Position numbers and translations under genes: made by a program | Assembly (NCBI GenBank): GCA_043818175.1 | Contig: JBDRGA010000016.1 | Coordinates: forward strand, 14,003 to 78,002 | DNA length: 64,000 nt | Reading direction: 5' to 3' | From: Candidatus Woesearchaeota archaeon | GTDB lineage: Archaea; Nanobdellota; Nanobdellia; Woesearchaeales; JBDRGA01 | Shown here: positions 19,060 to 41,956 of the stretch, piece after piece | How the letters are laid out: every line of letters begins with the position of its first letter | Numbering within the stretch: position 1 is the first letter of the stretch | Notes under the pieces: model-generated | What the model saw: only the letters and a program-made list of their open reading frames with translations | Told to the model about the DNA's origin: nothing | The model's database searches: none

Positions 19060-21246
19060 TCAGTCAGAATACTCTGTATCAAGCACTTCGCGAATCCTTG
19101 CTGCTTTCTTTTCACCTATTAAGTCAACTTTCTGCAATTTTTCTTCAGATGCGGAAAGTAACTTCTTGGGCGTTTTGAACTTCTTGAGTAATGGTTTTGC
19201 AAGGGCAGGTCCAATACCAGGGAGTGAAGATATAAGATATTCCTGCTGTTCCTTCAGCGTTAATGGCTTTGCAGAATGCATTGTGAACTCCTTCTTCTTG
19301 TCTTCCTGAAATCGCTTTGCAATAACCCCAAATAATGCGGCAGTCTCTGCAGGACCAGAAGTTCTTAGCACAGGAATCTGAAAACTCAAAGCTAAAGTTG
19401 CAAGCATGCCCTGAATTGCAGAAGGATGCATATTCCTCTGCGCATACATATCTTCATCACCCTCAATGAGTATCAGTGGTTTCTGGTAAGCACGCAATCC
19501 TTTTGCCTGTGTAAGAAGCCGTCCATCAACAATACTATCAACAAAATCACGCACAGTCTTGAACTCAACACAAACATCCTCAGATAAAAGGTAATCTCCT
19601 ACTTCGAGTTGGGAGAGGTTAATAGTAAAGCCCTGTTCCGACAGGAGTTTTACTGTCTTTGATGCTTTCTCCCTGTGATCAACATAAATAGTCAATTTGT
19701 TGTCTGAGTAGTCCATAAGACTCCTTGTGCTCTTTTGGGGTGAGAAAGTTCTTTTCATCTCTTTCAATTCGCGATACATTCTAATCTCTTTATGGTGTGC
19801 GCTCCACCTGTGCGCTTCATCTCTTGTTCCCTTTGTTACTAGAACAACAACACGCCCTTTCTCCTGTCTCCCCGTTCTTCCTCTGCGTTGCACTGTTCTT
19901 ATTGCTGAAGGTACAGGTTCGTAGAATATCACCATATCCACTGCTGGAATGTCCAACCCTTCTTCTGCTACAGAAGTGGCCACTAAAACATTAAAACCTC
20001 CTTCCCTGAACGATTGCAATGTTGCCTGTTGTTTTTTCTGCGACATACCCGTATCTGCTTTCATCTGTTGGCCTACAAATATCTTGCAAGGTATCTTCTC
20101 TGTTTCGAGAGCGCGCACAAGCACAGATGCCTGGTCTCTGTATTGATTAAACAATATTATCTTAACCTCTTTATTGATGACATATTCATTCCTGATAAGC
20201 CGCACGGCTTCGCCGAGTTTCGGATGCTCAACTCCTTCCTCGAGAAGACGCGACGCCAAAAGGTGTGCCGCCTTAACATCTAGATGCTGCATCAGGTTCT
20301 TCACTGCTTTCACATTGGTGCTTCTAGACTGTTCGGAAAGTTTGTCAAGGTAGGCAACAACCGAAGCCACACCTTGTGTTTCCGCTAATTCTATGGCGTG
20401 CTGAACTTTCGTTGCCTGCGCAATAAGAGATAATGCTTTCATGGCAGTAAAATCTCTGTCGCGAGATACTGACGCACCAAGCGCGCGTTGAAGATGAAGC
20501 AAGTCCACTTTGTTCATCTGTGAACTATTATTTGGGGCGTGGCCCGTGGCAGCAAGCTGAGTCATTGCGTCGTCGTATGCTTTTTTCAAGTAATCTCTCA
20601 GCGCCAAAATCTTTGGGTGTGGTGTTAAGGTAACCCAATCCACGTTGATTTCCTGCACGTACTGTTTTACGTCGGGGTCTTCTTCTGTTCTTACTTCTAT
20701 ATCTTCAATATGAAGATTCTGCATTACTTCTTGAATGTCTTCTTTCCTGCTTCCCGGGCTTGCAGTTAGTGCGAGAAGTCTGGCGTGTGATGCTGACGCA
20801 AAATACCTCTTTGCAATAAAGACATAACCATAATCACCCACTGCTCTGTGCGCTTCATCCACTACGAGAAGCGAGACTGAGTCGAGTTTTATCCGTTTCG
20901 TGAGTATGTCGTTTTCAAGTCCTTGTGGTGTTGATATTACAACGCGCGCATCCTTCCACAATTCCTCTCGTGTTTCTGGTTTTACGTGGCCTGTGAACAA
21001 AACTATACGTTCCTCTGGAATGTCAAGATGATTTCGAAAACTGGCGGCGTGCTGCTCACATAAAGGTCTTGTGGGAGCCAACACCAACACTTTCGATCCA
21101 GAATAATGCTCTAGGCGGTGTGCGGCAAGCATCACGGCCACCATCGTTTTTCCCAGCCCCGTGGGCAAAACAACTAAAGTGTCGTGCTTTACTGCAGTGG
21201 CTAGAATTGTCTGCTGATATAGCCTTGGCTCGAACCCTTTAATCAT
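19060..21246 (-). CDS. hef: Hef: helicase-associated endonuclease for fork-structured DNA (SF2 helicase + ERCC4/XPF nuclease + HhH2)
   Basis: LPTGLGKT Walker A, VVDEAH DEAH box, a helicase C domain, an ERCC4 nuclease motif (IYVDHREKAS...) and C-terminal helix-hairpin-helix repeats. At ~728 aa from the internal Met (MIKGFEPRLYQQ), the size matches Pyrococcus Hef. Confidence 0.8.
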   Translation of the reverse strand: MIKGFEPRLYQQTILATAVKHDTLVVLPTGLGKTMVAVMLAAHRLEHYSGSKVLVLAPTRPLCEQHAASFRNHLDIPEERIVLFTGHVKPETREELWKDARVVISTPQGLENDILTKRIKLDSVSLLVVDEAHRAVGDYGYVFIAKRYFASASHARLLALTASPGSRKEDIQEVMQNLHIEDIEVRTEEDPDVKQYVQEINVDWVTLTPHPKILALRDYLKKAYDDAMTQLAATGHAPNNSSQMNKVDLLHLQRALGASVSRDRDFTAMKALSLIAQATKVQHAIELAETQGVASVVAYLDKLSEQSRSTNVKAVKNLMQHLDVKAAHLLASRLLEEGVEHPKLGEAVRLIRNEYVINKEVKIILFNQYRDQASVLVRALETEKIPCKIFVGQQMKADTGMSQKKQQATLQSFREGGFNVLVATSVAEEGLDIPAVDMVIFYEPVPSAIRTVQRRGRTGRQEKGRVVVLVTKGTRDEAHRWSAHHKEIRMYRELKEMKRTFSPQKSTRSLMDYSDNKLTIYVDHREKASKTVKLLSEQGFTINLSQLEVGDYLLSEDVCVEFKTVRDFVDSIVDGRLLTQAKGLRAYQKPLILIEGDEDMYAQRNMHPSAIQGMLATLALSFQIPVLRTSGPAETAALFGVIAKRFQEDKKKEFTMHSAKPLTLKEQQEYLISSLPGIGPALAKPLLKKFKTPKKLLSASEEKLQKVDLIGEKKAARIREVLDTEYSD

Positions 21247-21307
21247 AATGAAACAGAAAAGGAAGAATCGTTTAATTGCTTTTCCTCCGAAAAAAAGAGG
21301 AAAAAAT

Positions 21308-21562
21308 TTATCGCTTCTTGACAGTGCGTTTCCTGCCACGCGCCATCTTTGCGCGGCTGATGTCGCCCTGACTGTCTACGAAGTACAGGTATCCTGACTC
21401 CTTCTTGACGCCTGCCTTGGCTACCTTCTCGCGTTTGGCTTTTCCTTTCTTCTTGCCACCACCGCGGGCCATCTGTGCGCGGGAGATGTCTCCCTGCTTG
21501 TCGACGAAGTACAGGTAACCGTACTGTTTCTTAACTCCTACTTTTGCAACCTTTTGTGCCAT
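21308..21562 (-). CDS. Small basic protein built from two tandem ~36-aa repeats (VAKxGVKKxxGYLYFVDxQGDISRAxMARG)
   Basis: Directly visible internal duplication; Lys/Arg-rich with no Cys; possibly nucleic-acid binding. Function unknown. Confidence 0.45.
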   Translation of the reverse strand: MAQKVAKVGVKKQYGYLYFVDKQGDISRAQMARGGGKKKGKAKREKVAKAGVKKESGYLYFVDSQGDISRAKMARGRKRTVKKR

Positions 21563-24213: not shown

Positions 24214-24565
24214 CTGTTAATGGGAATGTTTGTTGTATATATAAGCGTTTCGACATTTGACTATTGAGTAGTGATTACAAATTGTGGATGTTATGTGACC
24301 CTCCTGTTGCACTTGGAAACGCGAAAATCAAAATAAACGAACTTTTTCGAATGATGTTTATATATAATATATAATATATTTCAATATTGAAAAATAATAA
24401 TAAGAGTTCTCATTTCTGATATTAAACAAGAAAACAGTCGCAAGCCATATAAGAAAGTTCCATAGGAAATGAAGGGGTGTCTCTTCATCACTCGAAACCA
24501 ACAATTCCCTTACTTATATTCTCGTAGCGCAATCCTTAAATAGGGGTGTGTTTCGAGTGCAACGT
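24214..24565. other. Putative replication origin (oriC): ORB element, AT-rich unwinding region and inverted repeats upstream of orc1/cdc6
   Basis: A full ORB-like box GTTCCATAGGAAATGAAGGGGTG lies at ~24457-24479. A ~70-bp >85% AT stretch at 24355-24420 contains the palindrome TTTCAATATTGAAA. Inverted repeats GTTGCACTTGGAAAC (24306-24320) and GTTTCGAGTGCAAC (24550-24563) flank it. The layout matches the Pyrococcus cdc6-polD origin. Confidence 0.55.
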
Positions 24566-25771
24566 ATGGGGAATTTGAAGAATTATTTCGAGGCATACCT
24601 GAACACAACAAGCATTTTTAGTGATAAACATGTGCTTCAGAGCAACTACTTTCCAACCGAAGTAAATCATCGGAACGAACAGATAACTCAAGTGGCTAAA
24701 ATACTCGCTCCAGCACTTCGCGGCGAGAAACCGAGCAACCTATTTATTTATGGAAAAACAGGAACCGGAAAGACACTTTGCGTGAAACACACAACAAGTC
24801 AGATGTCCAAGGTGGCATCTGAGAAAGGAATTGCATTAAAAGTGTGTTATTTGAACTGCAAACTCAAGAAGATTGCAGATACAGAATACAGGCTTATTGC
24901 ACAGCTCGCGAGAGAATTTGGCAAGGCGATTCCACCAACAGGACTACCAACGGACGAAGTTTACAACACTTTCTTTTCTGCTCTAGATGCCGAGAAACAA
25001 ATAGTATTGTTGGTTCTGGACGAAATTGACCAATTGGTTAAGAAAGCAGGGGATGAAATAATATACAATCTCACAAGAATAAATTCAGACCTTAAGAACT
25101 CACAAGTGAGCATTATAGGAATAAGTAATGATTTAATGTTCAGTAACAATCTAGACCCACGCGTCAAGTCGAGTTTGAGTGAAGAGGAGCTTCTCTTTCC
25201 ACCATACAACGCGCTTCAGATCCAGGAAATACTAAAAGAAAGAGCAGACATCGCATTCAAAGAAGGAGCACTCCAGGAAGGAGTAATACAAAAATGTGCA
25301 GCATATGCTGCAAGGGAACACGGTGATGCGAGAAGAGCACTAGAACTGTTAAGAGTTGCAGGAGAACTGGCAGAAAGAAGCCAACAGGAACAAGTAACAA
25401 CAGAACAGATAGACAGCGCAGAGGATAAGATAGAGCACGACAGAGTGTATGAATTGGTAAAAACACAACCAAAACAACACCAACTCGTACTTTTCAGCAT
25501 TTTAAACATAAAACCAGAGAACTCACAAACCCAAATTTATACAGGAGAAGTTTACGATTATTACAAAGGGCTCTGCGACCAGGTTAGCCAAAGACCATTG
25601 ACGCAAAGAAGAGTCAGTGATGTAATACAGGAAATGGACATGTTGGGCATAATAAATGCAAACGTGATAAGCAAAGGCCGTTTTGGCCGGACAAGAGAAA
25701 TAAGTCTTGCGATACATCATTCCCTGAAGACAAAAATAATGACCACGTTGAAAGATGAAGTATTCTCCTGA
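24566..25771 (+). CDS. cdc6: Orc1/Cdc6 replication initiator
   Basis: AAA+ Walker A GKTGTGKT, Walker B LVLDEID, sensor motifs and a C-terminal winged helix. The track ORF starts at a GTG at 24548; I used the ATG at 24566. Confidence 0.88.
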   Translation: MGNLKNYFEAYLNTTSIFSDKHVLQSNYFPTEVNHRNEQITQVAKILAPALRGEKPSNLFIYGKTGTGKTLCVKHTTSQMSKVASEKGIALKVCYLNCKLKKIADTEYRLIAQLAREFGKAIPPTGLPTDEVYNTFFSALDAEKQIVLLVLDEIDQLVKKAGDEIIYNLTRINSDLKNSQVSIIGISNDLMFSNNLDPRVKSSLSEEELLFPPYNALQIQEILKERADIAFKEGALQEGVIQKCAAYAAREHGDARRALELLRVAGELAERSQQEQVTTEQIDSAEDKIEHDRVYELVKTQPKQHQLVLFSILNIKPENSQTQIYTGEVYDYYKGLCDQVSQRPLTQRRVSDVIQEMDMLGIINANVISKGRFGRTREISLAIHHSLKTKIMTTLKDEVFS

Positions 25772-27204
25772 TGGACCCCGAACTCATCAAACGGCTTCTT
25801 GAGAAGAACATTCTGGTGTCGCCAGACACCACAGATGAAGAAGCCAGAAGGCTACTTGGCGATGCACCAGAAACCAAATTAGTTATCAATCCAAACGAAG
25901 CACCGGAATTGAATATAGTTTATGATTTCAACGAACCGCCAAAGAAACGCACAGTTCAGGACTTTGTAGGGTTATTTAATGCGAGATTCCGCGAGCTTGA
26001 AGGAATACTGAGGAATCGTGTTGAACTACAGAACCTTACCAGCATTTCGAGAGCCAAGAAAATGCAGGCCAGAGAAAGAACAGCAATTATTGGAATGGTT
26101 CTGGACAAGCGCGAAACAAAAAATCACAACATAATACTTGTCATGGAAGACCAGACCGGAAGCATAACAACAATATTCACTCAGAAAAACAAAGAAACGT
26201 TTGAAATGGTCAAAGACATAATGCTGGATGAAGTAATAGGCATAACAGGCCAGACCGCAGGAGATGCAATCTTTGCTGATAAAATAATTTTGCCAGATGT
26301 GCCAGTAACAAAAGAACTCAGAAAAGCACAAGAGGATGAATATTTGGTCGTGCTTGGAGACCCACACATAGGAAGCAAACGATTTCTAAGACACAGCTTC
26401 GGAAAGTTTCTCCAATGGATAAATGCAGAGGCGGGCACACCAGAACAAAGAGATAATGCGAAAAAAGTAAAACACATAATTGTTACTGGTGATTTGGTTG
26501 AGGGAGTCGGAATTTATCCAAACCAGGAAAGGGACTTGGAAATTCCAGACATACGTGCACAGTACGAAGCCCTAACGAGTATAATCAGTCAGATTCCACA
26601 ACGAATACGGATAACGATGTTCACAGGCAACCACGATTCTGGCAGGATGGCAGAACCCCAACCCGCCCTGGGAGACTATTATTCAGAAACGTTGCACAAA
26701 TTACCAAACGTGACGTTCGTAAGCAATCCAAGCGTAGTCAACATAGGCAGAACAGACAAGTTTGAAGGATTTGATTTGCTTCTTTACCATGGATATAGTT
26801 TAGGATACTACGGGACAAATATACCAAGCGTCAGAGCGGCAGGAGGCATGACGCGCGCGGACCTAATCATGAAATACTTTCTTCAGAGAAGACACCTTGC
26901 GCCATCTCACAAGAGCACACTGTATGTTCCCACACCTCAGAAAGACCCGCTAGTAATATCCACAATTCCCGACTTCTTCATAACCGGGCACACCCACTGT
27001 GTTACTGTAACCAATTACAGAAATATTACTTTAATTAATGGCAGTTGCTGGGCGGGAATGAGTGAAGACCAGGAAAAGAGAGGAATAACACCAGCTCCAG
27101 CAAGAATAATTCTGGTGAACTTGAAGACAAGAGCAGTAAAGATAATGAATTTCATGGACAAGACAGACATAGAAGAAGGAAGGAGCCTGGAGCTGGTTGC
27201 ATGA
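25771..27204 (+). CDS. polB: DNA polymerase D small subunit (DP1; Mre11-like phosphoesterase)
   Basis: 477 aa; OB domain plus calcineurin-like phosphoesterase motifs (VVLGDPHIG, GDLVEGVG, GNHD, GHTH). Confidence 0.85.
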   Translation: MDPELIKRLLEKNILVSPDTTDEEARRLLGDAPETKLVINPNEAPELNIVYDFNEPPKKRTVQDFVGLFNARFRELEGILRNRVELQNLTSISRAKKMQARERTAIIGMVLDKRETKNHNIILVMEDQTGSITTIFTQKNKETFEMVKDIMLDEVIGITGQTAGDAIFADKIILPDVPVTKELRKAQEDEYLVVLGDPHIGSKRFLRHSFGKFLQWINAEAGTPEQRDNAKKVKHIIVTGDLVEGVGIYPNQERDLEIPDIRAQYEALTSIISQIPQRIRITMFTGNHDSGRMAEPQPALGDYYSETLHKLPNVTFVSNPSVVNIGRTDKFEGFDLLLYHGYSLGYYGTNIPSVRAAGGMTRADLIMKYFLQRRHLAPSHKSTLYVPTPQKDPLVISTIPDFFITGHTHCVTVTNYRNITLINGSCWAGMSEDQEKRGITPAPARIILVNLKTRAVKIMNFMDKTDIEEGRSLELVA

Positions 27205-30200
27205 ACGCAAGCAAACAGATGCAGCAGTACTTCAAGGAACTAGAGAAACAGTGCTTCAAAGAGCTTGCTGTTGCCGAGTCCTGTAGGAAAAAGTCATACG
27301 ACCCGACAAAAGAAGTGGAGACAGCTCTCGCGAAGAACATGGCAGAGCGAGTAATAGGAATAATTGCAGTTGTAGCACCCCAGATACGAGGAAAAGGAGC
27401 AGAAAAAAGAATACAGGAACTCGAGAAAGAGTATGGTGTTCTCGACTGGAGAGTTGCGCTGAAAATATCTGAAGAGATTGCAAGGCAGAAATTCTGCACG
27501 TTCAAAGATGAACGGGAAGCAATGGAAGTGGGTATTCGTGCAGGATTCACATATGTTACAGTTGGTGTTGTCAGCAGTCCCTTAGAAGGATTCACAAGCC
27601 TGGAACTGAAAGACAGAATGGATGGAACGGGGAAGTATTTCTGTCTGAATTATTCTGGCCCAATTAGGAATGCAGGTGGAACAGCGGCGGCGGTAAGTGT
27701 CATAATAGGAGATTATGTTCGAGTAAAGTTCGGCTATAAAGAATACGATCCAACAGAAAAAGAAGTAAAGCGTTGTTTTGCAGAAATGATGGATTATCAT
27801 GAATGGATTGCGAATTTGCAATATGTTCCTTCGGAAGCAGAAACGGAATTCTTGTTGCAGAGAATACCTGTAGAAGTAAGTGGCGACCCAAGCGAGAAGT
27901 ACGAAGTAAGCAACATAAATTTGAAAGACCTTCCAAGAGTGCAACATAATAGATTAAGGTCGGGCTACTGTCTGATTCATTCAAGCTGCATACCTTTGAA
28001 AGCACCAAAGCTGTGGAAGCAATTGTCTGTTTGGGGAGAAGAATTCTCGATGGGACACTGGAAGTTCCTTGAAGAATTTCTCGTGCTGCAGAAGAAGATG
28101 AAAGCACAGGGAAAGAAAGCAGCAAGTGACAAGCTTGCTCCGGATTATACATTCATTCATGATCTTGTTGCTGGCAGGCCGGTATTTGGACATCCATCAA
28201 GACAAGGAGGGTTCAGGTTAAGATATGGTAGGAGCAGAACATCAGGATTCAGCGGTCAAAGTTTGCATCCAGCAACAATGGTAGTGATGAACGAATACAT
28301 TGCTACTGCAACGCAACTCAAAGTCGAAAGACCCGGAAAAGCAGCAGCGTTTACGGTTTGTGATACAATAGAAGGTCCCGTAGTAAAGTTAGAGTCGGGA
28401 GACGTGGTGTGTTTGAACAACGAAAGGGAAGCACGAAAAATACGACCACAGATAAAAGAGATAATATACGCAGGAGACATCCTGATAAACTGGGGTGATT
28501 TCCTCAACAGAGCTCACGTCTTGGCGCCGGCAGGGTATTGTGAGGAATACTGGATACAGGAAGTTGAGGAGAGAATAGTGCACTTGTTCGGTACTCTGGA
28601 CTTCGAAAAGGCAGGATACTTACTGGATGAAGAAGAAGGCAAACTTCGAAGTATGTTCTCAAATCCTTTAGGGACGAATGTAAATGCGAGCACTTCAATT
28701 AAAATGAGCACGCGGCTGGGCTGTCCATTACATCCAGCACATACATTCAAATGGCGCGCATTGTCTGCGAAGCAACTCAAGGAACTTGTCGTGTGGCTAA
28801 AGAAAGGAAAAACAATAGAGGAAAGTGAGTATAAACTCATTCTTCCATTGGATTCAGCGAAGAGATATCTCGAGCTAATTGCATGTCCCCACAAACACAT
28901 CCAGAATGAACATTCAGTCATACAGCACGAAGCATTGCTGGCGCTGAAGACACAACTGGACTTCGAAAACATAAAAGAAGAAGACCTGTCTGAAGAGGGG
29001 AACGCGCTTAATGTTATAATATCACTCGCGGCCTATCCAATCAGAGATAAATTGGGCATTTCAATAGGTGCGAGGATGGGTCGTCCCGAAAAAGCAAAGA
29101 TGAGGAAGCTCACTGGAAGCCCGCATGCACTTTTCCCAATAGGCGAACAAGGGGGAAAACTGAGAAGCTTCCAGGAAGCACTGGTGGCTGGCAATGTTGA
29201 AGCAGATTTTGGAGTTTATTGGTGTGGCAAGTGTAAGAAAGAACAAGTATTGCCAATATGTATAACTTGTGAAAAGCCAACAGAGAAGAAGAAATTCTGC
29301 ACGACCTGTGGTGTAGTTGATGAATGTCCTCACGAACCAAAACCATTCAAGCGCAGCACAATACCAATACGAGAATACTTCAATTATGCACTAAAAAAAG
29401 GAGGCACAAGCATATATCCAGACCTGATTAAAGGGGTGAGGGGCACAGTTGGCACTGAACACATACCCGAGCACCCGTTGAAGGGAATATTGCGTGCAAA
29501 ACACAGCATCTGTGTAAACAAAGACGGCACAACCCGGTATGACATTAGTGAGGTCACAATGACCCACTTCAAACCAAAAGAAGTTGGCACATCTGTGGAA
29601 AAATTAAGGGAATTGGGATATACTAGTGACGTTTATGGTAAACCATTGGACCACGAAGACCAGGTTCTCGAATTAAAAGTGCAGGATGTCGCGCTTCCCA
29701 GCTGTCCAGATAGCCCCGACCTTCCGTGTGATGAAATACTATATAGAACTGCGAACTTCATGGACGAGCTGCTCGTGAGTCTTTACGGTCAAAAACCATT
29801 CTACAATCTCCAGAACAGAGCAGACTTGGTGGGTCATCTAGTGATTGGGTTGGCTCCGCATACTTCTGCAGGCATCCTTGGGAGAATCGTTGGCTTCACA
29901 AAAACACAAGGATTCTTCGCCCACCCTCTCTATCATGCAGCAATGCGCAGAGACTGCGATGGTGATGAGAGTTGTGTTGTGTTGCTTCTTGATTGTCTTG
30001 TCAACTTCTCCAAATCTTTCTTACCCAGCAGCAGAGGAAGCACGATGGACGCACCAATAGTACTGACATACATCTTAACACCATCAGAAGTGGACGATAT
30101 GGCATTTGATGTTGATAGGGTTTGGAAGTACCCTCTGAAACTGTACAGGGCTGCAGAACAATACAAAATGCCCTGGGACGTCCCACTTGATAAAATAGGG

Positions 30201-30704
30201 AACCACCTCGGAAAGCCAGGCGAGTACGAAGGCATGGGTTTTACGCACGACACAGACAACATCAATGCAGGTGTTCTTTGCAGCGCGTACAAGCTCTTGC
30301 CAAGCATGCAGGAGAAACTCATGAGTCAAATGGACCTAGCCGAGAAACTCAGAGCAACAACAGCTTCAGAAGTGGCAGCTTTGGTGATTGAGAAACACTT
30401 CATTAGAGATATTAAGGGAAATCTTCGTAAGTTTTCGCAGCAGGAATTCAGGTGTGTTAACTGTAATGCTAAATACAGACGACCACCCTTGAAGGGAAAT
30501 TGCACTACCTGTAATGGAAAGATAATATTCACAATAGCAGAAGGAAGTGTCATTAAGTACTTGGGCCCTTCAATCAGTCTAGCAAAGAAATATGGAGTTA
30601 GCACTTATCTTCAACAGACATTGGAACTTACACAGCAGCGTATTGACGAGCTTTTTGGCAAGGACAAGGAGAAGCAGTTAGGACTTGGTGCGTGGTTTGG
30701 GTAA
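27201..30704 (+). CDS. polC: DNA polymerase D large subunit (DP2), intein-free
   Basis: 1167 aa collinear with archaeal DP2. Zn-finger cysteine clusters (CGKCKKE..CITC, CTTCG, CVNCNAKY..CTTCNG). Its start overlaps the DP1 stop by 4 nt. Confidence 0.85.
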   Translation: MNASKQMQQYFKELEKQCFKELAVAESCRKKSYDPTKEVETALAKNMAERVIGIIAVVAPQIRGKGAEKRIQELEKEYGVLDWRVALKISEEIARQKFCTFKDEREAMEVGIRAGFTYVTVGVVSSPLEGFTSLELKDRMDGTGKYFCLNYSGPIRNAGGTAAAVSVIIGDYVRVKFGYKEYDPTEKEVKRCFAEMMDYHEWIANLQYVPSEAETEFLLQRIPVEVSGDPSEKYEVSNINLKDLPRVQHNRLRSGYCLIHSSCIPLKAPKLWKQLSVWGEEFSMGHWKFLEEFLVLQKKMKAQGKKAASDKLAPDYTFIHDLVAGRPVFGHPSRQGGFRLRYGRSRTSGFSGQSLHPATMVVMNEYIATATQLKVERPGKAAAFTVCDTIEGPVVKLESGDVVCLNNEREARKIRPQIKEIIYAGDILINWGDFLNRAHVLAPAGYCEEYWIQEVEERIVHLFGTLDFEKAGYLLDEEEGKLRSMFSNPLGTNVNASTSIKMSTRLGCPLHPAHTFKWRALSAKQLKELVVWLKKGKTIEESEYKLILPLDSAKRYLELIACPHKHIQNEHSVIQHEALLALKTQLDFENIKEEDLSEEGNALNVIISLAAYPIRDKLGISIGARMGRPEKAKMRKLTGSPHALFPIGEQGGKLRSFQEALVAGNVEADFGVYWCGKCKKEQVLPICITCEKPTEKKKFCTTCGVVDECPHEPKPFKRSTIPIREYFNYALKKGGTSIYPDLIKGVRGTVGTEHIPEHPLKGILRAKHSICVNKDGTTRYDISEVTMTHFKPKEVGTSVEKLRELGYTSDVYGKPLDHEDQVLELKVQDVALPSCPDSPDLPCDEILYRTANFMDELLVSLYGQKPFYNLQNRADLVGHLVIGLAPHTSAGILGRIVGFTKTQGFFAHPLYHAAMRRDCDGDESCVVLLLDCLVNFSKSFLPSSRGSTMDAPIVLTYILTPSEVDDMAFDVDRVWKYPLKLYRAAEQYKMPWDVPLDKIGNHLGKPGEYEGMGFTHDTDNINAGVLCSAYKLLPSMQEKLMSQMDLAEKLRATTASEVAALVIEKHFIRDIKGNLRKFSQQEFRCVNCNAKYRRPPLKGNCTTCNGKIIFTIAEGSVIKYLGPSISLAKKYGVSTYLQQTLELTQQRIDELFGKDKEKQLGLGAWFG

Positions 30705-33121: not shown

Positions 33122-33982
33122 ATGGGTCGCATGGTCCTCGAGTCCCTAACCTCGCCTTTCTCTGCAGAGAAAACGCCGTGGAAGATGTTCTTCTTCGGGA
33201 TTGTGTATGCTTCTGCTGGTGCGTTCCTGGCGATGTGGATATTCAAGGAGTACAGTTCCTTGATTATGGTATTCTTAACCACGATGGCCGCAATTCCACT
33301 GATTTACAATACAATCAGAATGGAAGAGAAGAAAGATCTCGAAGAACTCTCGGAAAGAAGGCTCTTAAAAGAGCACGGTAAAGCATTGAGTTATTTCATG
33401 TGGTTGTTCTTTGGAATGGTCGTTGCTGGCGTTTTCTGGTTTGCAGTCTTGCCTTCAAACACAGTAAGCACACTCTTCGAATCACAACTCGCAACAATTC
33501 AAACATTAGCACCAACAACAGGAAACGCAATACAAGCTTCTGCAAGCACTTTCAACTTCATATTCCTCAACAACGTACAAGTCTTAATCTTCTGTATTTT
33601 GTTTAGTTTCTTGTATGGTGCGGGCGCGATATTCATTCTCACTTGGAACGCTTCAGTAATTGCTGCAGCAATAGGAAACTTCATCAGAGGTGGACTTTCA
33701 GTAGCAAGCACCGCCATCGGCGCGGACAAGATGGGGCAGTACTTCAGCACGGTTGCCATAGGTTTGTTGAAATATACAATTCACGGCATTCCGGAGATTC
33801 TGGCATACTTCACTGCTGGTTTGGCTGGAGGAATAATATCTGTTGCAGTAATACGGCATGATTTTGGGACGAGAAGCTTCGAACACATATTGCTTGATTC
33901 GGCGGACTTGATACTGTTATCTTTGCTCTTGCTCTTTGTTGCGGCGATACTTGAAGTGTTTGTAACGCCGATAGTGTTTTGA
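33122..33982 (+). CDS. DUF95 / SpoIIM-like membrane protein
   Basis: 286 aa polytopic; IHGIPEILAYFTAGLAGG is a motif typical of the stage II sporulation protein M family. Confidence 0.6.
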   Translation: MGRMVLESLTSPFSAEKTPWKMFFFGIVYASAGAFLAMWIFKEYSSLIMVFLTTMAAIPLIYNTIRMEEKKDLEELSERRLLKEHGKALSYFMWLFFGMVVAGVFWFAVLPSNTVSTLFESQLATIQTLAPTTGNAIQASASTFNFIFLNNVQVLIFCILFSFLYGAGAIFILTWNASVIAAAIGNFIRGGLSVASTAIGADKMGQYFSTVAIGLLKYTIHGIPEILAYFTAGLAGGIISVAVIRHDFGTRSFEHILLDSADLILLSLLLLFVAAILEVFVTPIVF

Positions 33983-35468: not shown

Positions 35469-36059
35469 TTATTCAAGAACCCTAACCTTTCCCTTGACTT
35501 CATAAACATCGCCTTCCTTCATCAGCGTGTCCAGTATTTCATCGAAGTTCGGAAGATTGACTTCGTTTTCCAATGCAACAATATCAACACCTTGGCCTTT
35601 GTCTAACGTTCTTATTGCTTCAACAACAAGATTATTAGGACTTTTTATGAGCTCGGCTTCCTGAACGGGCGCTATGTGTTGCTTTACTGTCTGCGTCGGA
35701 CGTCTGTTTTCCAGTTCTTTTCGTCTGATAAGAACCCAAGTCATATCTTGCTTTTTTATAATTTCAGAAGCGAGGAAAATTCCTCCGGAGCTCCTTGGTC
35801 TGCCTATAACAAGCACGATGTCTCCGACATCTTCGTTTATCGTGCCATCAAAATTCCTGACTGTTATTTGGCCGGAGCCGTCGTCAACGAGAACTTCGGA
35901 AGTGGAATCTTTCTGCACGACAACCCCGATTAAGTTAACACGAGAAACATCACCAAAGCGCGTCTGCAAGACACTTGGCTCCATTCCTTCCCTCTGCACG
36001 TAACTCCCTTCAACAATATCCTTCGCGGAAAGCTTGACTGCGGTTAGGTGGGGTCGCAT
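35469..36059 (-). CDS. OB-fold plus C-terminal winged-helix protein, RPA32/Rpa2-like
   Basis: Central OB-fold pattern (VNLIGVVVQKDSTSEVLVDDGSGQITVRNFDG) and a C-terminal wH-like segment; lies downstream of MCM on the same strand. Assignment is tentative. Confidence 0.35.
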   Translation of the reverse strand: MRPHLTAVKLSAKDIVEGSYVQREGMEPSVLQTRFGDVSRVNLIGVVVQKDSTSEVLVDDGSGQITVRNFDGTINEDVGDIVLVIGRPRSSGGIFLASEIIKKQDMTWVLIRRKELENRRPTQTVKQHIAPVQEAELIKSPNNLVVEAIRTLDKGQGVDIVALENEVNLPNFDEILDTLMKEGDVYEVKGKVRVLE

Positions 36060-36167: not shown

Positions 36168-36569
36168 TCAAGGGTACAAGTCATATCTGCAGGTGTAGAT
36201 GTTGCCGTTTGTGTCGAGTGCTTCATCTAGACGGAAAAGCATCCAAACACCGCTTATTTCTGTTCCGTCAGTCAATACGATATCTAGGTCTCTTCTGAAT
36301 AAGTTTCTATCCAACGCTTCGGAATATGTCATATCTTCTGGAAGCTTATCTTCGACCCACATCGTACCGTTCTGGTTGTTGTACGTGTTGCCTTCCTTGA
36401 GTATTGTGAATGCTTGTTCGTCATTTTGGACGGGCGCACCAACGGCGCCGGACAATTCATAGATACCAGGGCACGATATATATTGCGCACTCGAAGAAGA
36501 TTTACATCCTGTCAGCGCACCAGTCAACAAAATGAGAATGCATAAAGCGAGAATGCTTTTCGATGTCAT
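36168..36569 (-). CDS. Small secreted lipoprotein
   Basis: Signal peptide with lipobox LTGALTGC; 133 aa. Confidence 0.5.
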   Translation of the reverse strand: MTSKSILALCILILLTGALTGCKSSSSAQYISCPGIYELSGAVGAPVQNDEQAFTILKEGNTYNNQNGTMWVEDKLPEDMTYSEALDRNLFRRDLDIVLTDGTEISGVWMLFRLDEALDTNGNIYTCRYDLYP

Positions 36570-36659: not shown

Positions 36660-39600
36660 TCACATCTTACTAATCTTTCCAGGCTTGGGATGATAGATAT
36701 CTCCCTTCCTGGTTAGCTTTTCTAAGATTTCTTCTGCCTTGTCCTGGTTGATGCTCTGGTTCAGGGCTTCCTGGATAACGTCTTCCGTCTCAATTACCTT
36801 GCCGTACGTTTCAGTCAGTTGATTAATAATCTCCTTGATTTGGTGAATCTGATTACGTTCAGAAGCAGGAATACCTCCAGTGAAACGGTCAATGTCAATC
36901 TTTCCCGTTTGAGGGTCCATTCCAATCTGTTGCAAGCAGTAATGAACCAGTTCAATCGCTCTTCGGGAGTCCTTCCTTCTAATTACAGTGTCCAATCTTG
37001 TTTTAGCTGAAGCTTCACTCAAACGAACAAGCGCTTCCAACTGACGAGCAGAAATCGGTACTGCTTTAACACCACCCTCGCCTCCACCAGAAGCACGCAT
37101 TTCAACGAAGTATCTTTGGATCTCTTCCTTGGCTTCATCGCTTAGAATGGGCTTGCAGCGTATCCTAGCATAACTCACGTACTTCTTGTAGAATTCAGTC
37201 TTCAGTTCAACCGTGTCAAGAGCGTGCTCATCCTGATGCAGGTCTAGGATGAAACTAGCCATCTGCTCGTCCTTGAACTTATCGGGCATGTCTTTCACTG
37301 CAAAGATTAGGTCAAAGCGATTAATCAACGTAGAAGGCAGTTCAATCTGTTTTCCAACCATCTCGTAGGGGTCAAAACGCCCGAATTTTGGGTTTGCAGC
37401 TGCGAGAACAGTTGTTTCAGCCCTCAATGTTGCCTGAATGTTCGCTTTAGAAATAGAAATAGTCTGCTGTTCCAAAGCTTCGTGCAAAGCACTAGTATCT
37501 TCTTTAGTCATCTTATCTAGTTCGTCAATACAACAGATGCCTTTGTTCGTTAAAGGCAAGGCTCCAGCTTCCAAAGCCCAACCACGAAGGAAATCATCTT
37601 TCACAACCGAAGCAGTATTGTGAACCAAAACACCGTCAACGATGAAATTATGCGAATCCTCCACAGTTAAGTCATACACAAAGTCAAACTTTGACTTCTT
37701 CAATTCAACAGATTTCACCTTTTCCCAGAACACATCGCTGTTTGCCAGCGCGAGAAGCTCGACGTCTTCTATTTGATTCTCAAGTACAATTCTCTGCAAC
37801 GCTTCTTTGCTCAGATTGGGATGCCATCCTGCCTTTTTGAGTGGAATCTTTCTAGATTGGAGAATCTCCTTCAACCGCTCAGAAACGCCAGGAACAACAT
37901 CAATGTTTGTATTGTGCTTGGTTTTTGAAATTAATGCCAGTTTTGCCTTCTTTTTGGGGTGGCGTAATGGAATCTCTTTTGCAAATGTCTCGATGTCCTT
38001 ACCTCTTATTGATAGAACCCATTTGTCCAGTTTTCCCTGAATCTTCGAATTAACACTCGGGCTTCTGGGTCTTAATCGTGCATGCACGCCATATCTTAGG
38101 AATGCAAGCTGAAGCTGCCGTGCGAGTTTCTCTGAACAAGTCGTGAACTCGATGCACGAGCTATTATGTCCTTTACTGACGTAAACAGATCCATCTGCGT
38201 CATATAGTCCTGCGATGTATGAAGCAAGAAGTTTATTTGAAAGGTGAAGGAGTGTATTGGACATAAATATTGAAGACGATTTGGGGCTTAGTGAAATTCC
38301 GAGAGACATAAGAATCTCTCCAACAATCTTTGATGCAACTCTGCTTGCCTGTGGTCTGGTATCTGATTCTGGTTGAGTATCACATGAAAGTTGGAATTCC
38401 TTCTCAAACAAGTTTCTGAATGTGTCAAGAATGGTTGGTTCGCCGTTTGACAACCTAATGGCTATTGAATCTCCTGGAGTTTTTCTCATGTCGCCGTCGC
38501 CTGCGATGAGCCCTGCAACATGGAGAAATTCTTTTGAGAGATTGATGGGCACTTTGTGCTTCTTCCCGTTCCAGAGACTCACTGTCTGTACTCTGTGTTT
38601 CCAAGGAATCCTCGCAGCTTCAGCAAGGAGTCTCAGGTCATTAAGCTTGATGGTCCCTCTGGTTTCTGGATTCACCCAATGATGATATAGTTGGTTCTCG
38701 TTTATGCAAAGCGCGTTGGCTGCCTTTCTCACAGAACCGTATATTTCTTTCAGAATCTCAACAGATTCCTTGACCAAATCCTCAACGCCGCGCACAACAG
38801 GATTGCTCGCAATAAGGTCAACTGGGCTTTGCTCATTGACTGTGCCTCCAATTAGTTTTCTGGGTGTTCCGACAAAAGTGCCAGTTGTTATCTCAGAACT
38901 CTTAGTCCAAGACGGCTTACCACCATTTAGTACGAAGAGTTTCGTATTTGCAGTAAGTTGAACCCGTTTTCCGCTATCAAGCGTTACCTCATACATGAAT
39001 TCAGGAGCCTCAAGACGCCATATTGCAGAGGGATGCTTAGAATGTAACTTCATGTCTTTAGATAAAGACTGTATTTTGACATCTGTCACGTTATCTCTTT
39101 TCCACACACCTGATCTGAACTCAAGAGGAAATTCCATTCTTGATTCAACAACCTCTTGGATTGTTTCACATCCTCCTGGATTTGTAAGAACCATGCTTTC
39201 AGGGCTCACGCACAATCCAGCACCGGACGCACCTTTACCAGAAACAAACCTTGATTTAGGCGCAACTTTAGCAATTCTCCTCAACAATTGTGATTTTCCC
39301 GAACCAGGGTCTCCAATGAGCAGAATATGTATGTCTCCTCTCCTAACTACACCATCGGTCATGCTCTTTCTCACACCACCAAACAATTGCAATAACAGCG
39401 CTTCCTTGATTTTATCGTGACCGTAAATGCTTGGAGCTAAACTACCAATCAATGATTCGTAAACATCAGGCCTTTTGGCGAAATCCTCTATTCCAGCCAG
39501 TTCTTCAGGAGAAATAGCCATCTCAGAGAAATCTTCAAGCACTGGTTCTACAAAATTTGCTTCGCACATCAAATCAAAGCGAGTGCTCTGTCCGCCTTGT

Positions 39601-40295
39601 TGCAAGGTAATTGGAACCTCTTTTACGATTCCAACAACCTTTATCTTTGCACCAGGATTGGTTCTTTTCTCTGTTATTGGAGAGACAAGATCGTTCTTCA
39701 GGAAGATGTTGAACCTTTTAGGTTGCTCTCCGCCTTCTAATTCGTCAGGAGACTCTTCTAAAGTAATCTTCTGCGCATCGACCAGTTCCTTACCAATCAA
39801 ACGGAACTTACCTTTTCTACCACAACCACATCTTGTTGGCTCCTTGAATTTAGTATCGAGCTGTAGCACCGCAATAATATTGCCACAGGAAGGGCATTCA
39901 AAACGAGCAGCCGTTACTTGAGGCCGGACATCTGTCTTCTGCTTTACGATACCCTGCATCTCGAGAAATTTGCCAATATGTCTGGAACGAATATCTCTGA
40001 TCATAATCTGCTGACTTTCAGGAAGGTCCTTGAATCGTATCTGGAAGTTCTTTACTTCTCCAGCAAGATCAAACCGGTCAACGGCAGCAGAAGCAGCAGC
40101 CAGTACTTCTTCAGGGTCTTCGAGCAGCAGGTCAGCTAGTTCAGGATTGAACTTCGCGAGCTCTCCAAGCTCCACAACGAGAAACTTATGCCCCTTCGAG
40201 GCCTGTTTTACCAGGTCTGCGTAATGATGTTCCTCGAGGAACTTGTGGAAAAGCTCAATCTGCTTGGCTGCATCGATTGTTTGAGCTTCCTGCAT
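36660..40295 (-). CDS. mcm: MCM replicative helicase interrupted by one large intein
   Basis: N-terminal Zn motif CPSCGN...CGCG, Walker A GDPGSGKSQ, Walker B CCIDELDKM, sensor and arginine-finger regions, and a C-terminal wH. It is 1211 aa, of which ~679 aa is extein. Confidence 0.88.
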   Translation of the reverse strand: MQEAQTIDAAKQIELFHKFLEEHHYADLVKQASKGHKFLVVELGELAKFNPELADLLLEDPEEVLAAASAAVDRFDLAGEVKNFQIRFKDLPESQQIMIRDIRSRHIGKFLEMQGIVKQKTDVRPQVTAARFECPSCGNIIAVLQLDTKFKEPTRCGCGRKGKFRLIGKELVDAQKITLEESPDELEGGEQPKRFNIFLKNDLVSPITEKRTNPGAKIKVVGIVKEVPITLQQGGQSTRFDLMCEANFVEPVLEDFSEMAISPEELAGIEDFAKRPDVYESLIGSLAPSIYGHDKIKEALLLQLFGGVRKSMTDGVVRRGDIHILLIGDPGSGKSQLLRRIAKVAPKSRFVSGKGASGAGLCVSPESMVLTNPGGCETIQEVVESRMEFPLEFRSGVWKRDNVTDVKIQSLSKDMKLHSKHPSAIWRLEAPEFMYEVTLDSGKRVQLTANTKLFVLNGGKPSWTKSSEITTGTFVGTPRKLIGGTVNEQSPVDLIASNPVVRGVEDLVKESVEILKEIYGSVRKAANALCINENQLYHHWVNPETRGTIKLNDLRLLAEAARIPWKHRVQTVSLWNGKKHKVPINLSKEFLHVAGLIAGDGDMRKTPGDSIAIRLSNGEPTILDTFRNLFEKEFQLSCDTQPESDTRPQASRVASKIVGEILMSLGISLSPKSSSIFMSNTLLHLSNKLLASYIAGLYDADGSVYVSKGHNSSCIEFTTCSEKLARQLQLAFLRYGVHARLRPRSPSVNSKIQGKLDKWVLSIRGKDIETFAKEIPLRHPKKKAKLALISKTKHNTNIDVVPGVSERLKEILQSRKIPLKKAGWHPNLSKEALQRIVLENQIEDVELLALANSDVFWEKVKSVELKKSKFDFVYDLTVEDSHNFIVDGVLVHNTASVVKDDFLRGWALEAGALPLTNKGICCIDELDKMTKEDTSALHEALEQQTISISKANIQATLRAETTVLAAANPKFGRFDPYEMVGKQIELPSTLINRFDLIFAVKDMPDKFKDEQMASFILDLHQDEHALDTVELKTEFYKKYVSYARIRCKPILSDEAKEEIQRYFVEMRASGGGEGGVKAVPISARQLEALVRLSEASAKTRLDTVIRRKDSRRAIELVHYCLQQIGMDPQTGKIDIDRFTGGIPASERNQIHQIKEIINQLTETYGKVIETEDVIQEALNQSINQDKAEEILEKLTRKGDIYHPKPGKISKM
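37617..39212 (-). mobile_element. MCM intein (~532 aa) with a LAGLIDADG homing-endonuclease domain
   Basis: Inserted after SGKGASGAGL. It begins CVSPESMVL and ends GVLVHN, with T as the +1 extein residue. Two LAGLIDADG blocks are present (VAGLIAGDGDM and LASYIAGLYDADGSV). Coordinates are derived by residue counting, +/- a few nt. Confidence 0.8.
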
Positions 40296-40921
40296 TAGCG
40301 TACATTCTTGACGTTCTCGATGAGCATGGCAAGCGCTTTATGCACCTGTTCTTCGCTCTTAGTACCTGTGCAAACAACCTTTCCGTTGCTGAACAGGAGG
40401 AACGTGGCTTTTGCTTCCCTTAGCTTGTATACAAGTCCTGGGAACTGTTCTGGCTCGTATTCTGTGTTTTCGAGCTTCATAGCCAATGTGTTAAGGTTAA
40501 GGTCCATGCCTATGCTTCCTGAAGCAACGATGTTCTGGATTATTATCTTAGGTGTTATTGTTATCTTTATACCTATTTTCTTCAAAGATTCGATAATCTT
40601 CTGGATTGACTCCTCAACTTTCTCCATGCTTCTCGCGCCAGTGCAGACCACTTTGCCAGAGCTGAATATCAAAGCTGAAGTTTTGGGTTCACGAATCCTA
40701 ATTACCAAACCAGGGAACTGCTCAGGATTGTATTCTGTGTTGGACAAAGTTGCAGCCATCTTTTCCAGAGGAATATCGTGCTCAAGGCTAGTGCTAACTA
40801 CCATATTAACAACTTCAACTTGAACTTCGCGTTTAATTCCTTTATCGGTCTTAATTGCTTTGTCGGTTGATGTTTTCTGTACGGCCTTTTTTGCTGCTTT
40901 GTGTGCGGCTTTCTTTGGCAT
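40295..40921 (-). CDS. tbp: TATA-box binding protein with a Lys-rich N-terminal extension
   Basis: Two TBP repeats (NTEYNPEQFPGLVIRIREPKTSALIFSSGKVVCTGARS and NTEYEPEQFPGLVYKLREAKATFLLFSNGKVVCTGTKS). The track ORF runs to 41029 through a TTG; I used the Met at 40921 (MPKKAAHKAAKK...). Confidence 0.85.
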   Translation of the reverse strand: MPKKAAHKAAKKAVQKTSTDKAIKTDKGIKREVQVEVVNMVVSTSLEHDIPLEKMAATLSNTEYNPEQFPGLVIRIREPKTSALIFSSGKVVCTGARSMEKVEESIQKIIESLKKIGIKITITPKIIIQNIVASGSIGMDLNLNTLAMKLENTEYEPEQFPGLVYKLREAKATFLLFSNGKVVCTGTKSEEQVHKALAMLIENVKNVR

Positions 40922-40928
40922 AATACAA

Positions 40929-41150
40929 ACCCCCTGTTTCGGGTTCTTTCTTAAACCCTTTATAAGGGGAATTGCTTTCTTATTTATAAAGGCTTTCGTT
41001 CCCTGACCAGTATGTTGCTTATACACCAATTCCAGAATCTAAGACCCCTTGATTTCCACTGGAACTTTGGCTGTAGAGGCTCTGTAAGGCCAGTATTTGG
41101 TGTTCTTTATGTTTTGGTGACGAAATAGACCCCCTTGTTTCCGATGGAAC
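40929..41150 (-). promoter_or_regulatory. Cluster of ORB-like elements (two full boxes plus a mini-ORB) and a TATA element upstream of tbp-mcm
   Basis: On the minus strand the full boxes are GTTCCATCGGAAACAAGGGGGTC (~41128-41150) and GTTCCAGTGGAAATCAAGGGGTC (~41044-41065). A mini-ORB CCCGAAACAGGGGGT (~40929-40943) lies 8 bp before the TBP ATG, and CCCCTTATAAAGGG sits at ~40956-40969. Confidence 0.5.
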
Positions 41151-41164
41151 TCATTTATAAACAA

Positions 41165-41956
41165 TCAACGTTTTCTTGATGCTCTTTCAATGATGTTCTT
41201 AGTGATTATTCTATTCTCGCTGCATATCTGCAAGAGTTCTCCTGTTGGTCTGCGAGGAAAACTGCAGTAGACCACTTTCTTGTGGAACTGGTTGATTGCG
41301 GCCTTGATTGCAGGGGAGAAGTCGGCATCGTTGCTGAACAACAGCGCCAAGTCGAAGGAATCCTGTGCGGCATCAAGCAGGAGAACTGTTGCCAGTTGAA
41401 CATCCACTCCCTTCTCAATGCTCTTCTGGATGTCCTTTGTGCGTATTAGGTTTCCACAGTCCGGACACGAGAGAGTCTTTACGTTCCGGCAACCGCACGA
41501 AGGACACGCCGCCATGATGTGTCCAAGAGGTCTGTTCGCGAGCTTTCCGAAATGAAGGTCGATTCTTCCAGTCTCTTTCAAGCGCGCAAGAAATGTGTGG
41601 TGTTTCTCTTGAGTATTCTGGTTGAGTTGACCGTTTCCTGAAGTCGTAAAGTACTTGATTCTCGACAGAGTCTCATCACCAAGGAGCATTCGTTCCGCAA
41701 CTCGGACGAGGTCAACTCTGTGAATCCCGAAAGCTCGTTTGCATGAATGATAGAAATTGCTTCCGTCTACGTATGCATTCACTCTCGCTCGATAAGCATT
41801 CTTGTTTGAGTTAGAAACGTGCCCACCATTACTAGACCTTTCAGTCAAGCAAGGATGGGGAGGTAATTGATTATCGGAAGACTCCTTATTATATAATCCT
41901 TTGCTCGAGAAATCCGGAAATCTTTCAGACTCAATGATGCATTCAGAAGACGTCAT
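41165..41956 (-). CDS. NYN (LabA-like) domain protein with an inserted/C-terminal zinc ribbon
   Basis: The NYN N-terminal signature VNAYVDGSNFYHS and the catalytic-core D residues are present, plus a CPSCGC...CPDCG zinc ribbon. Confidence 0.6.
   Translation of the reverse strand: MTSSECIIESERFPDFSSKGLYNKESSDNQLPPHPCLTERSSNGGHVSNSNKNAYRARVNAYVDGSNFYHSCKRAFGIHRVDLVRVAERMLLGDETLSRIKYFTTSGNGQLNQNTQEKHHTFLARLKETGRIDLHFGKLANRPLGHIMAACPSCGCRNVKTLSCPDCGNLIRTKDIQKSIEKGVDVQLATVLLLDAAQDSFDLALLFSNDADFSPAIKAAINQFHKKVVYCSFPRRPTGELLQICSENRIITKNIIERASRKR

Follow-up and report, generated by a model that had tools for sequence, protein, structure and literature searches.

A stretch of 64,000 nucleotides from a Candidatus Woesearchaeota archaeon (GenBank assembly GCA_043818175.1, contig JBDRGA010000016.1, positions 14,003 to 78,002; hereafter, the window) carries, upstream of the tbp gene for the TATA-binding protein (TBP), two sequences that resemble the origin recognition boxes (ORBs) of archaeal replication origins. 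The gene for the replicative helicase, mcm, comes next after tbp, and such a linkage of the TBP gene to replication genes is unexpected. The question raised by this locus is whether the boxes mark a second origin, in addition to the one linked to the initiator gene cdc6, or whether Orc1/Cdc6 is used here as a regulator of tbp and mcm; the initial annotation of the window had left both options open. The answer bears on whether archaeal Orc1/Cdc6 initiators regulate genes as bacterial DnaA does. In the present case, the absence of an inverted ORB partner and of an AT-rich element speaks against an origin, whereas the strand of the boxes, their register with the TATA boxes, and the presence of an ORB at separately located mcm genes favor the regulator. 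The single Orc1/Cdc6 probably binds at the tbp boxes as a promoter-upstream regulator of a tbp-mcm-rpa32 operon.

A genome-wide search with the 23-bp ORB consensus had been proposed in the initial annotation. Run over the whole window with the 23-mer GTTCCANNGGAAAYNAAGGGGTS and up to 3 mismatches, it returned only three matches, namely, the distal and the proximal box upstream of tbp (ORB1 and ORB2, respectively; Table 1) and the box next to cdc6; 100 shuffles of the sequence gave no matches. ORB1 and ORB2 are, as had been claimed, full boxes in direct orientation on the tbp strand, with their starts 85 bp apart; ORB1 begins 14 nt past the stop codon of the upstream gene. Both show the canonical ORB anatomy, a TTCCAnnGGAA dyad with a G-rich string some 6 to 8 nt downstream, and ORB2 includes TTCCAGTGGAA, the core reported for the Pyrococcus ORB and mini-ORB. 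ORBs of the same type, with this core and a G-string, are found at Sulfolobus oriC1 and Pyrococcus oriC, and the P. abyssi repeat is quoted as TTCCAGTGGAACT (PMC1904270). Apart from a palindromic shadow, the weight matrix described below found no other match of at least 8 bits near the tbp boxes. Judged by these features, both boxes are genuine ORB-type sites rather than random matches.

The same does not apply to a third box. According to the initial annotation, three boxes match the cdc6-proximal one, which holds for the two full boxes in the consensus search but fails for the last of them, a mini-ORB placed 8 bp before the TBP start. The distance is in fact 7 nt, CCCGAAACAGGGGGT scores below 8 bits with the ORB weight matrix, and the part of it that is conserved in relatives is the G-run only (GGGGGT or GGAGG, some 5 to 12 nt before the ATG), not the GAAAC part. 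Neither the weight matrix nor conservation supports it as a third Orc1 site. In all likelihood the G-run serves tbp as its Shine-Dalgarno sequence, since GGGGGTG can pair, by way of one G-U pair among the matches, with the 3' end that archaeal 16S rRNA usually has. Motifs of the Shine-Dalgarno type precede only 11 of the 63 genes in the window.

Relatives of the locus were collected by a TBP search in GTDB with one genome per species, which yielded 80 loci (L001 to L080) of up to 12.5 kb each. The closest TBP relatives are 73 to 88% identical and come, without exception, from genomes of the Woesearchaeota/Nanoarchaeota type, some of them deposited under other names. A 25-nt weight matrix was derived from the tbp-upstream boxes of these relatives and applied at a threshold of at least 10 bits, with the 450 bp ahead of tbp as the tbp-upstream zone; by the third round, iteration of the matrix had drifted to matches in coding sequences, and the seed matrix was therefore used. 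Within the 34 kb that lie upstream of tbp it gave 73 matches on the tbp strand, versus 39 on both strands of the other 763 kb, an enrichment of about 80-fold, and the strong matches outside the tbp-upstream zone were mostly located upstream of mcm or cdc6. The opposite strand upstream of tbp had 8 matches, about 4 of them palindromic shadows, and an independent box in the opposite orientation was found near tbp in only 3 of the 80 loci.

At least one box on the tbp strand is present in 54 of the 80 loci, or in 54 of 73 if the 7 loci that are too short upstream are set aside. Two boxes are found in 18 loci, and no locus has more than three. In 14 of the 18 two-box loci, the start-to-start spacing is 83 to 88 bp; the inter-box spacer is conserved in length, and its sequences do not align. 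Relative to the ATG of tbp, the counterpart of ORB1 in relatives is located at about -205 to -235. A non-coding RNA between the boxes was also considered and dropped, as the region 40700-41400 had no Rfam match at permissive thresholds and the spacer sequence is not conserved.

The genes downstream of the boxes are far more constant than those upstream. In nearly all of the 80 loci, mcm comes after tbp and a homologue of the RPA32-like gene after mcm, whereas the gene upstream of tbp is not conserved, which indicates that the boxes belong to the operon. The NYN-domain gene that precedes tbp in the window was rejected as a partner of the boxes, as none of the 80 loci has a homologue of it ahead of tbp. 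The initial annotation was right in placing mcm immediately downstream of tbp: the mcm start overlaps the tbp stop, so that the two genes appear to be cotranscribed.

Between ORB2 and tbp, the overall layout is that of a promoter. The order of elements is ORB1, about 60 bp, ORB2, about 50 bp, the TFB recognition element (BRE) with TATA1, 17 bp, TATA2, Shine-Dalgarno sequence, and ATG. TATA1 is probably the main tbp promoter; TATA2 sits at about the expected start of a transcript from TATA1 and may represent a second promoter or a site of TBP autoregulation. In a 24-locus alignment of the relatives, the first TATA box is a near-invariant ATTTATAAA after a BRE of the aaAAG or AAAG type, and the second, about 25 nt past the first, is a near-invariant TTTATAAA. 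The strongly conserved islands of this alignment are ORB2, the TATA boxes, the BRE, and the Shine-Dalgarno/ATG region, with a weakly conserved spacer between ORB2 and the TATA boxes. As a separate observation, the tbp promoter holds two to four tandem TATA boxes, both in the window and in L001 to L080.

The boxes keep a register with these promoter elements. In the window, counted from the 25-nt matrix window around ORB2, TATA1 and TATA2 start 51 and 76 nt downstream, respectively. In 25 of 55 loci, the distance from the end of the proximal box to TATA1 is exactly 50 nt; in 17 of 55, an extra upstream TATA box follows the proximal box at 34 nt, and others show a second register of +20/+36. Such a fixed, conserved distance between boxes and promoter argues for a transcriptional control module and not for a second origin, of which fixed TATA offsets are not expected.

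ORBs are also found at mcm where this gene has a promoter of its own. There are four such loci: in L058 mcm is divergent from tbp, in L070 it occupies another part of the contig, in L047 a gap lies between the two genes, and in L072 a short spacer precedes mcm. In each of them, an mcm-oriented ORB precedes a TTTTAAAC-type TATA box by about 24 nt, with 25 to 30 nt from this TATA box to the start codon, and L070 has a box at mcm and none at tbp. Among the short tbp-mcm spacers of other loci, only that of L072 has an ORB. The cdc6 promoters of L082, L084, and L088 (loci from the cdc6 set described below) show a similar arrangement, ORB-N25-TTTAAATA-N22-ATG, and the window has TATA-like boxes 34 and 56 nt after the cdc6-proximal ORB. 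In L081, L083, and L095, there is an extra ORB-like dyad between the TATA box and the ATG of cdc6, a position typical of repression.

These arrangements suggest how the regulator might work. The two boxes would form the upstream module of the promoter for an operon of tbp, mcm, a 133-aa open reading frame (ORF), and the RPA32-like gene. Two Orc1/Cdc6 monomers would bind in the same polarity and roughly on one face of the helix, as 85 bp corresponds to about 8 turns. In co-crystal structures of the Aeropyrum and Sulfolobus proteins, the winged helix reportedly sits on the dyad and the AAA+ domain at the G-rich end, which makes the site polar; the AAA+/G-string ends of both bound monomers would then face the promoter. 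Orc1/Cdc6 bound upstream could modulate the recruitment of TBP and TFB. Archaeal regulators bound upstream of the BRE/TATA generally activate, and for this reason activation of the tbp promoter would be likelier than repression. Production of TBP, the helicase, and an RPA subunit would in this way be tied to the level or the nucleotide state of the initiator. With the cdc6-polD operon, which lies behind the origin-proximal ORB, added to this set, the outcome would be a small replication regulon under the control of the initiator.

The cdc6-linked site shows what an origin looks like in this lineage. From 18 cdc6 loci found in metagenomes, those with upstream DNA, along with L003 and the window, provided 15 sites for examination. 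In all 15, the matrix, which had been trained only on tbp-upstream boxes, recovered inverted ORBs around an AT-rich element, with a plus-strand ORB 70 to 115 bp upstream of cdc6. The regions between these ORBs are 77 to 93% AT, with best 50-bp windows of 86 to 100% AT and A/T-only runs of 17 to 63 nt; the respective values in the window are 78%, 94%, and 25 nt. By its sequence features, the window site at 24296-24479 is a full fit to the canonical archaeal origin class. The two kinds of sites are about 16.7 kb apart in the window, in line with the 16 kb given initially, and the tbp-mcm-rpa32 cluster lies 6 to 16 kb from cdc6 and is transcribed toward the origin on every contig that has both (the window, L003, L081, and L083).

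The tbp-linked site differs from the oriC1 type in that it has neither an inverted ORB pair nor an AT-rich unwinding element and does not adjoin the initiator gene. In the window, both boxes are on the minus strand, the neighbors are tbp and mcm, and the AT content of 50-bp windows around the boxes peaks at 72%. The absence of a strongly AT-rich element between the boxes, pointed out in the initial annotation, is borne out by the composition of the spacer (Table 1), and inter-ORB spacers of the tbp sites in general are 49 to 81% AT, near the mean of each locus, with A/T-only runs of 5 to 15 nt. The origin activity of Sulfolobus islandicus oriC1 depends on each of its two inverted ORBs individually (PMC12141716). 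Without such a pair and without an unwinding element, the tbp site fails two defining features of the oriC1 type, and it is unlikely to be a canonical second replication origin.

In a broader form, this alternative holds that a second or auxiliary origin lies by the helicase gene, where Orc1/Cdc6 at direct ORBs would load MCM and either the multi-TATA region or an AT stretch upstream of ORB1 would unwind. The tbp boxes are of full strength, with scores equal to or above those of most origin ORBs, and the region after ORB2 is somewhat enriched in AT, with a best 50-bp window of 72% in the window and 72 to 92% in relatives. In L058, an ORB in front of mcm on the minus strand, an AT-rich region of about 160 bp, and two plus-strand ORBs in front of tbp form an origin-like array, and on the contigs that carry both loci tbp and mcm would be codirectional with forks from an origin at the ORB pair. 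Still, we find an auxiliary origin quite improbable. No 50-bp window at the site in question exceeds 72% AT, ORB1 begins only 14 nt past the upstream stop codon, no inverted partner is present, and the rarity of independent minus-strand boxes near tbp stands against their inverted arrangement, with a strong unwinding element, at every cdc6 site. The cumulative GC skew has its minimum at 24 to 25 kb and no extremum at 41 kb, which is a weak argument, as the window is short and the skew follows the gene strand. Gene orientation is similar at both kinds of sites, with 60% of coding bases divergent upstream of tbp versus 65% upstream of cdc6. We know of no rationale for two origins 6 to 16 kb apart under one initiator.

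Could the boxes be bound by another protein, or be conserved for a reason that has nothing to do with Orc1/Cdc6? In relatives, genes for winged-helix proteins are found about 2 kb from cdc6 and have ORB-like boxes within or ahead of them, and their products would be candidates for such a role. However, this gene family is absent from the window, the boxes have the dyad and the G-string of a canonical ORB, and the very same motif is inverted around the unwinding element in all 15 cdc6 loci. This explanation therefore appears highly improbable.

Another possibility is an initiator-titration or architectural site of the kind represented by Escherichia coli datA and Haloarcula hispanica oriC2D, with the pair of boxes buffering Orc1/Cdc6 or looping with the origin and having no direct effect on tbp and mcm. 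In H. hispanica, a non-origin ORB cluster has been shown genetically to exert negative control over the nearby origin, probably through titration of Cdc6 (PMC3936714). Like the tbp-linked boxes, this ORB group is near, yet apart from, the cdc6-linked origin, has no origin activity of its own, and is regulatory; it consists of 11 ORBs in 722 bp directly downstream of cdc6E and is thought to titrate Cdc6E, whereas the window has two boxes in 243 bp, 16.7 kb away, in register with a promoter and oriented with the genes. The persistent proximity of tbp-mcm to cdc6 would suit titration, as would the dispensability of the boxes in about one-fourth of the lineages, which might be expected of a modulatory site. 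With only two boxes, which is well short of a high-density cluster, the titration capacity would be small, and titration predicts neither the gene-strand orientation, nor the TATA register, nor the ORB at the separate mcm promoter. Although it is the main rival to the regulator, we consider it unlikely.

The proposed control of the tbp-mcm-rpa32 operon by Orc1/Cdc6 has to be weighed against several observations. The 19 box-less loci among the 73 with enough upstream DNA retain the TATA array, and the boxes are thus not essential for tbp-mcm expression. The gap of 50 nt between ORB2 and TATA1 is wider than the 24 to 25 nt at the mcm and cdc6 promoters. The sequence of the spacer that follows ORB2 shows about 50% identity among loci, and the fixed spacing may in part stem from common descent with few indels and not from selection on geometry. 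In a few relatives from GC-rich genomes (L058, L047, L005, and L054), an AT-rich stretch directly precedes ORB1, and in L058 there is an inverted ORB about 560 bp off, at the divergent mcm, so an origin-like function of the tbp site is conceivable in some lineages. Finally, chromatin immunoprecipitation (ChIP) on arrays found Cdc6 of P. abyssi at the oriC region only (PMC1904270), which means that promoter binding by the initiator is not a general archaeal trait.

For a regulatory role of the initiator, the closest functional analogue is provided by the DnaA boxes in bacterial promoters, where the sequence that marks the origin is reused at the promoters of replication genes; here, ORBs are found at cdc6-polD and at tbp-mcm-rpa32. 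The differences are that the protein belongs to the Orc1/Cdc6 family, that the promoters are of the archaeal TATA/BRE type, and that the boxes lie some 24 to 50 nt upstream of the TATA box, whereas DnaA boxes overlap the core promoter; the evidence in the present case also comes from comparative sequence analysis. Among archaea, Orc1-2 of the Sulfolobales is the one proven Orc-family regulator, and it recognizes a short motif unlike the ORB. This regulator of the DNA damage response is likewise an Orc1/Cdc6-family protein acting at promoters (PMC6061795, PMC9738581), but it is a non-initiator paralogue with no origin binding in vivo (PMC3607249). In contrast, the lineage studied here combines canonical ORBs with a single Orc1/Cdc6, so that the initiator itself would be the regulator. 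No further Orc1/Cdc6 paralogue was found in the window, and in Nanobdellota the Orc1/Cdc6 gene belongs to the single-copy core (bioRxiv 10.64898/2026.05.13.725050). For the Sulfolobus initiators, Samson et al. mentioned non-origin ChIP-seq sites, altered transcript profiles, and a possible transcriptional role, without details (PMC3607249).

Taken more widely, the sole initiator of Woesearchaeota might also be an ORB-specific transcription factor with a regulon that comprises cdc6 and the PolD subunits, along with the tbp-mcm-RPA32-like operon, a proposal to which we would give about even chances. If it is true, one protein would set both replication licensing and the capacity for basal transcription, and archaea would have an equivalent of the DnaA regulon. 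In an order of uncultured DPANN archaea with one Orc1/Cdc6, the two promoters and the 23-bp site make a testable target set. There is also a practical side, as an origin predictor based on ORB counts could report a spurious second origin in genomes of the DPANN group. We found no papers on ORBs at tbp or mcm promoters or on Woesearchaeota origins, in a literature coverage that was incomplete and does not prove novelty; one preprint on 208 complete Nanobdellota genomes rotates them to the Orc1/Cdc6 gene, without ORB analysis (bioRxiv 10.64898/2026.05.13.725050).

Table 1. Positions of the boxes, promoter elements, and genes in the window and of ORB-associated features in related loci (locus name given before the coordinates)
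Feature	Position	Strand	Description
ORB1, distal box	41128-41150	(-)	GTTCCATCGGAAACAAGGGGGTC; dyad core, then G-string; 1 mismatch to consensus; 29.2 bits
ORB2, proximal box	41043-41065	(-)	GTTCCAGTGGAAATCAAGGGGTC; 0 mismatches; 33.2 bits
Inter-ORB spacer	41066-41127	(-)	58% AT vs locus mean of 56%; longest A/T-only run, 5
TATA1	40983-40990	(-)	TTTATAAA; BRE-like cgAAAGcc ahead
TATA2	40959-40966	(-)	CTTATAAA; 25 nt downstream of TATA1
Tandem TATA region	40955-40992	(-)	
"Mini-ORB" of the initial annotation	40929-40943	(-)	CCCGAAACAGGGGGT; G-run at 40929-40934
Intergenic region	40922-41164		243 bp, from stop of NYN-domain ORF to tbp ATG at 40921
NYN-domain ORF	41165-41956	(-)	
tbp, TATA-binding protein	40295-40921	(-)	208 aa; Pfam PF00352, E=2.8e-62, two repeats
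Weak ORB-like match within tbp	40751-40775	(-)	9.4 bits; encodes IPLEKMAA
mcm, replicative helicase	36660-40295	(-)	1211 aa; Pfam MCM, MCM_OB, MCM_lid, Intein_splicing, LAGLIDADG_3
133-aa ORF	36168-36569		function unknown; between mcm and RPA32-like gene
RPA32-like gene	35469-36059	(-)	196 aa; OB fold and C-terminal winged helix; third conserved member of the cluster
Reference ORB, cdc6-adjacent	24457-24479	(+)	GTTCCATAGGAAATGAAGGGGTG; 35.5 bits; points toward cdc6
AT-rich unwinding element of cdc6 origin	24330-24404		about 75 bp, almost pure A/T
Degenerate inverted ORB	24296-24320	(-)	9.4 bits; far side of unwinding element
cdc6 ORF	24548-25771	(+)	followed by PolD DP1 and DP2; likely start, ATG at 24566
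cdc6-polD(DP1)-polD(DP2) string	24548-30704	(+)	Pfam; ORFs overlap or abut
Hef-type protein	19060-21339	(-)	DEAD helicase, ERCC4 nuclease, and HhH
ORB within winged-helix gene	L089 1526-1550	(-)	
ORB within winged-helix gene	L090 2719-2743	(-)	
ORB within winged-helix gene	L091 827-851	(-)	
ORB within winged-helix gene	L093 7048-7072	(-)	
ORB within winged-helix gene	L088 303-327	(-)	
Winged-helix paralogue	L089 338-967	(+)	ORB 122 nt upstream of start

The cdc6-polD string directly behind the origin (24214-30704 with the origin region) and the nearby tbp-mcm-rpa32 cluster make up a compact replication-gene island. The RPA32-like ORF matches P. abyssi RPA32 (9f26_C) with an E value of 1.8e-6 in a phmmer search. 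The Hef-type protein is encoded 3 kb from the origin, and no ORB lies ahead of its gene. The mcm product contains a large intein with a LAGLIDADG homing-endonuclease domain, located in the P-loop region; in many relatives, mcm lacks an intein and encodes about 670 aa, and others also have long versions. In TBP, the Lys-rich N-terminal extension is very variable in length, with about 5 to about 50 residues ahead of the core start VVNIVVS in the window and in L001 to L080. The weak ORB-like match within the tbp coding sequence recurs at the same codons in several relatives, with scores of up to 14.9 bits, and probably results merely from conservation of the peptide.

Many operon-first genes (position 33122 of the window and others) lack a Shine-Dalgarno sequence and have a TATA box about 22 to 25 nt before the ATG, which suggests leaderless mRNAs. 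The likely cdc6 start fits this pattern, as TTAAATAG ends 22 nt upstream of it.

In the neighborhood of cdc6 in relatives, a full-strength ORB (31 to 32 bits) lies within the coding sequence of a protein of about 232 aa with a C-terminal winged helix, about 2 kb upstream of cdc6, where it encodes ISTGNQGVP, followed by TDRQTDRQ. Between L089 and L093, all 25 nt of this ORB agree at a protein identity of only 56%, a contrast that suggests selection on the DNA sequence itself. In L089, a paralogue of this gene is preceded by an ORB (Table 1).

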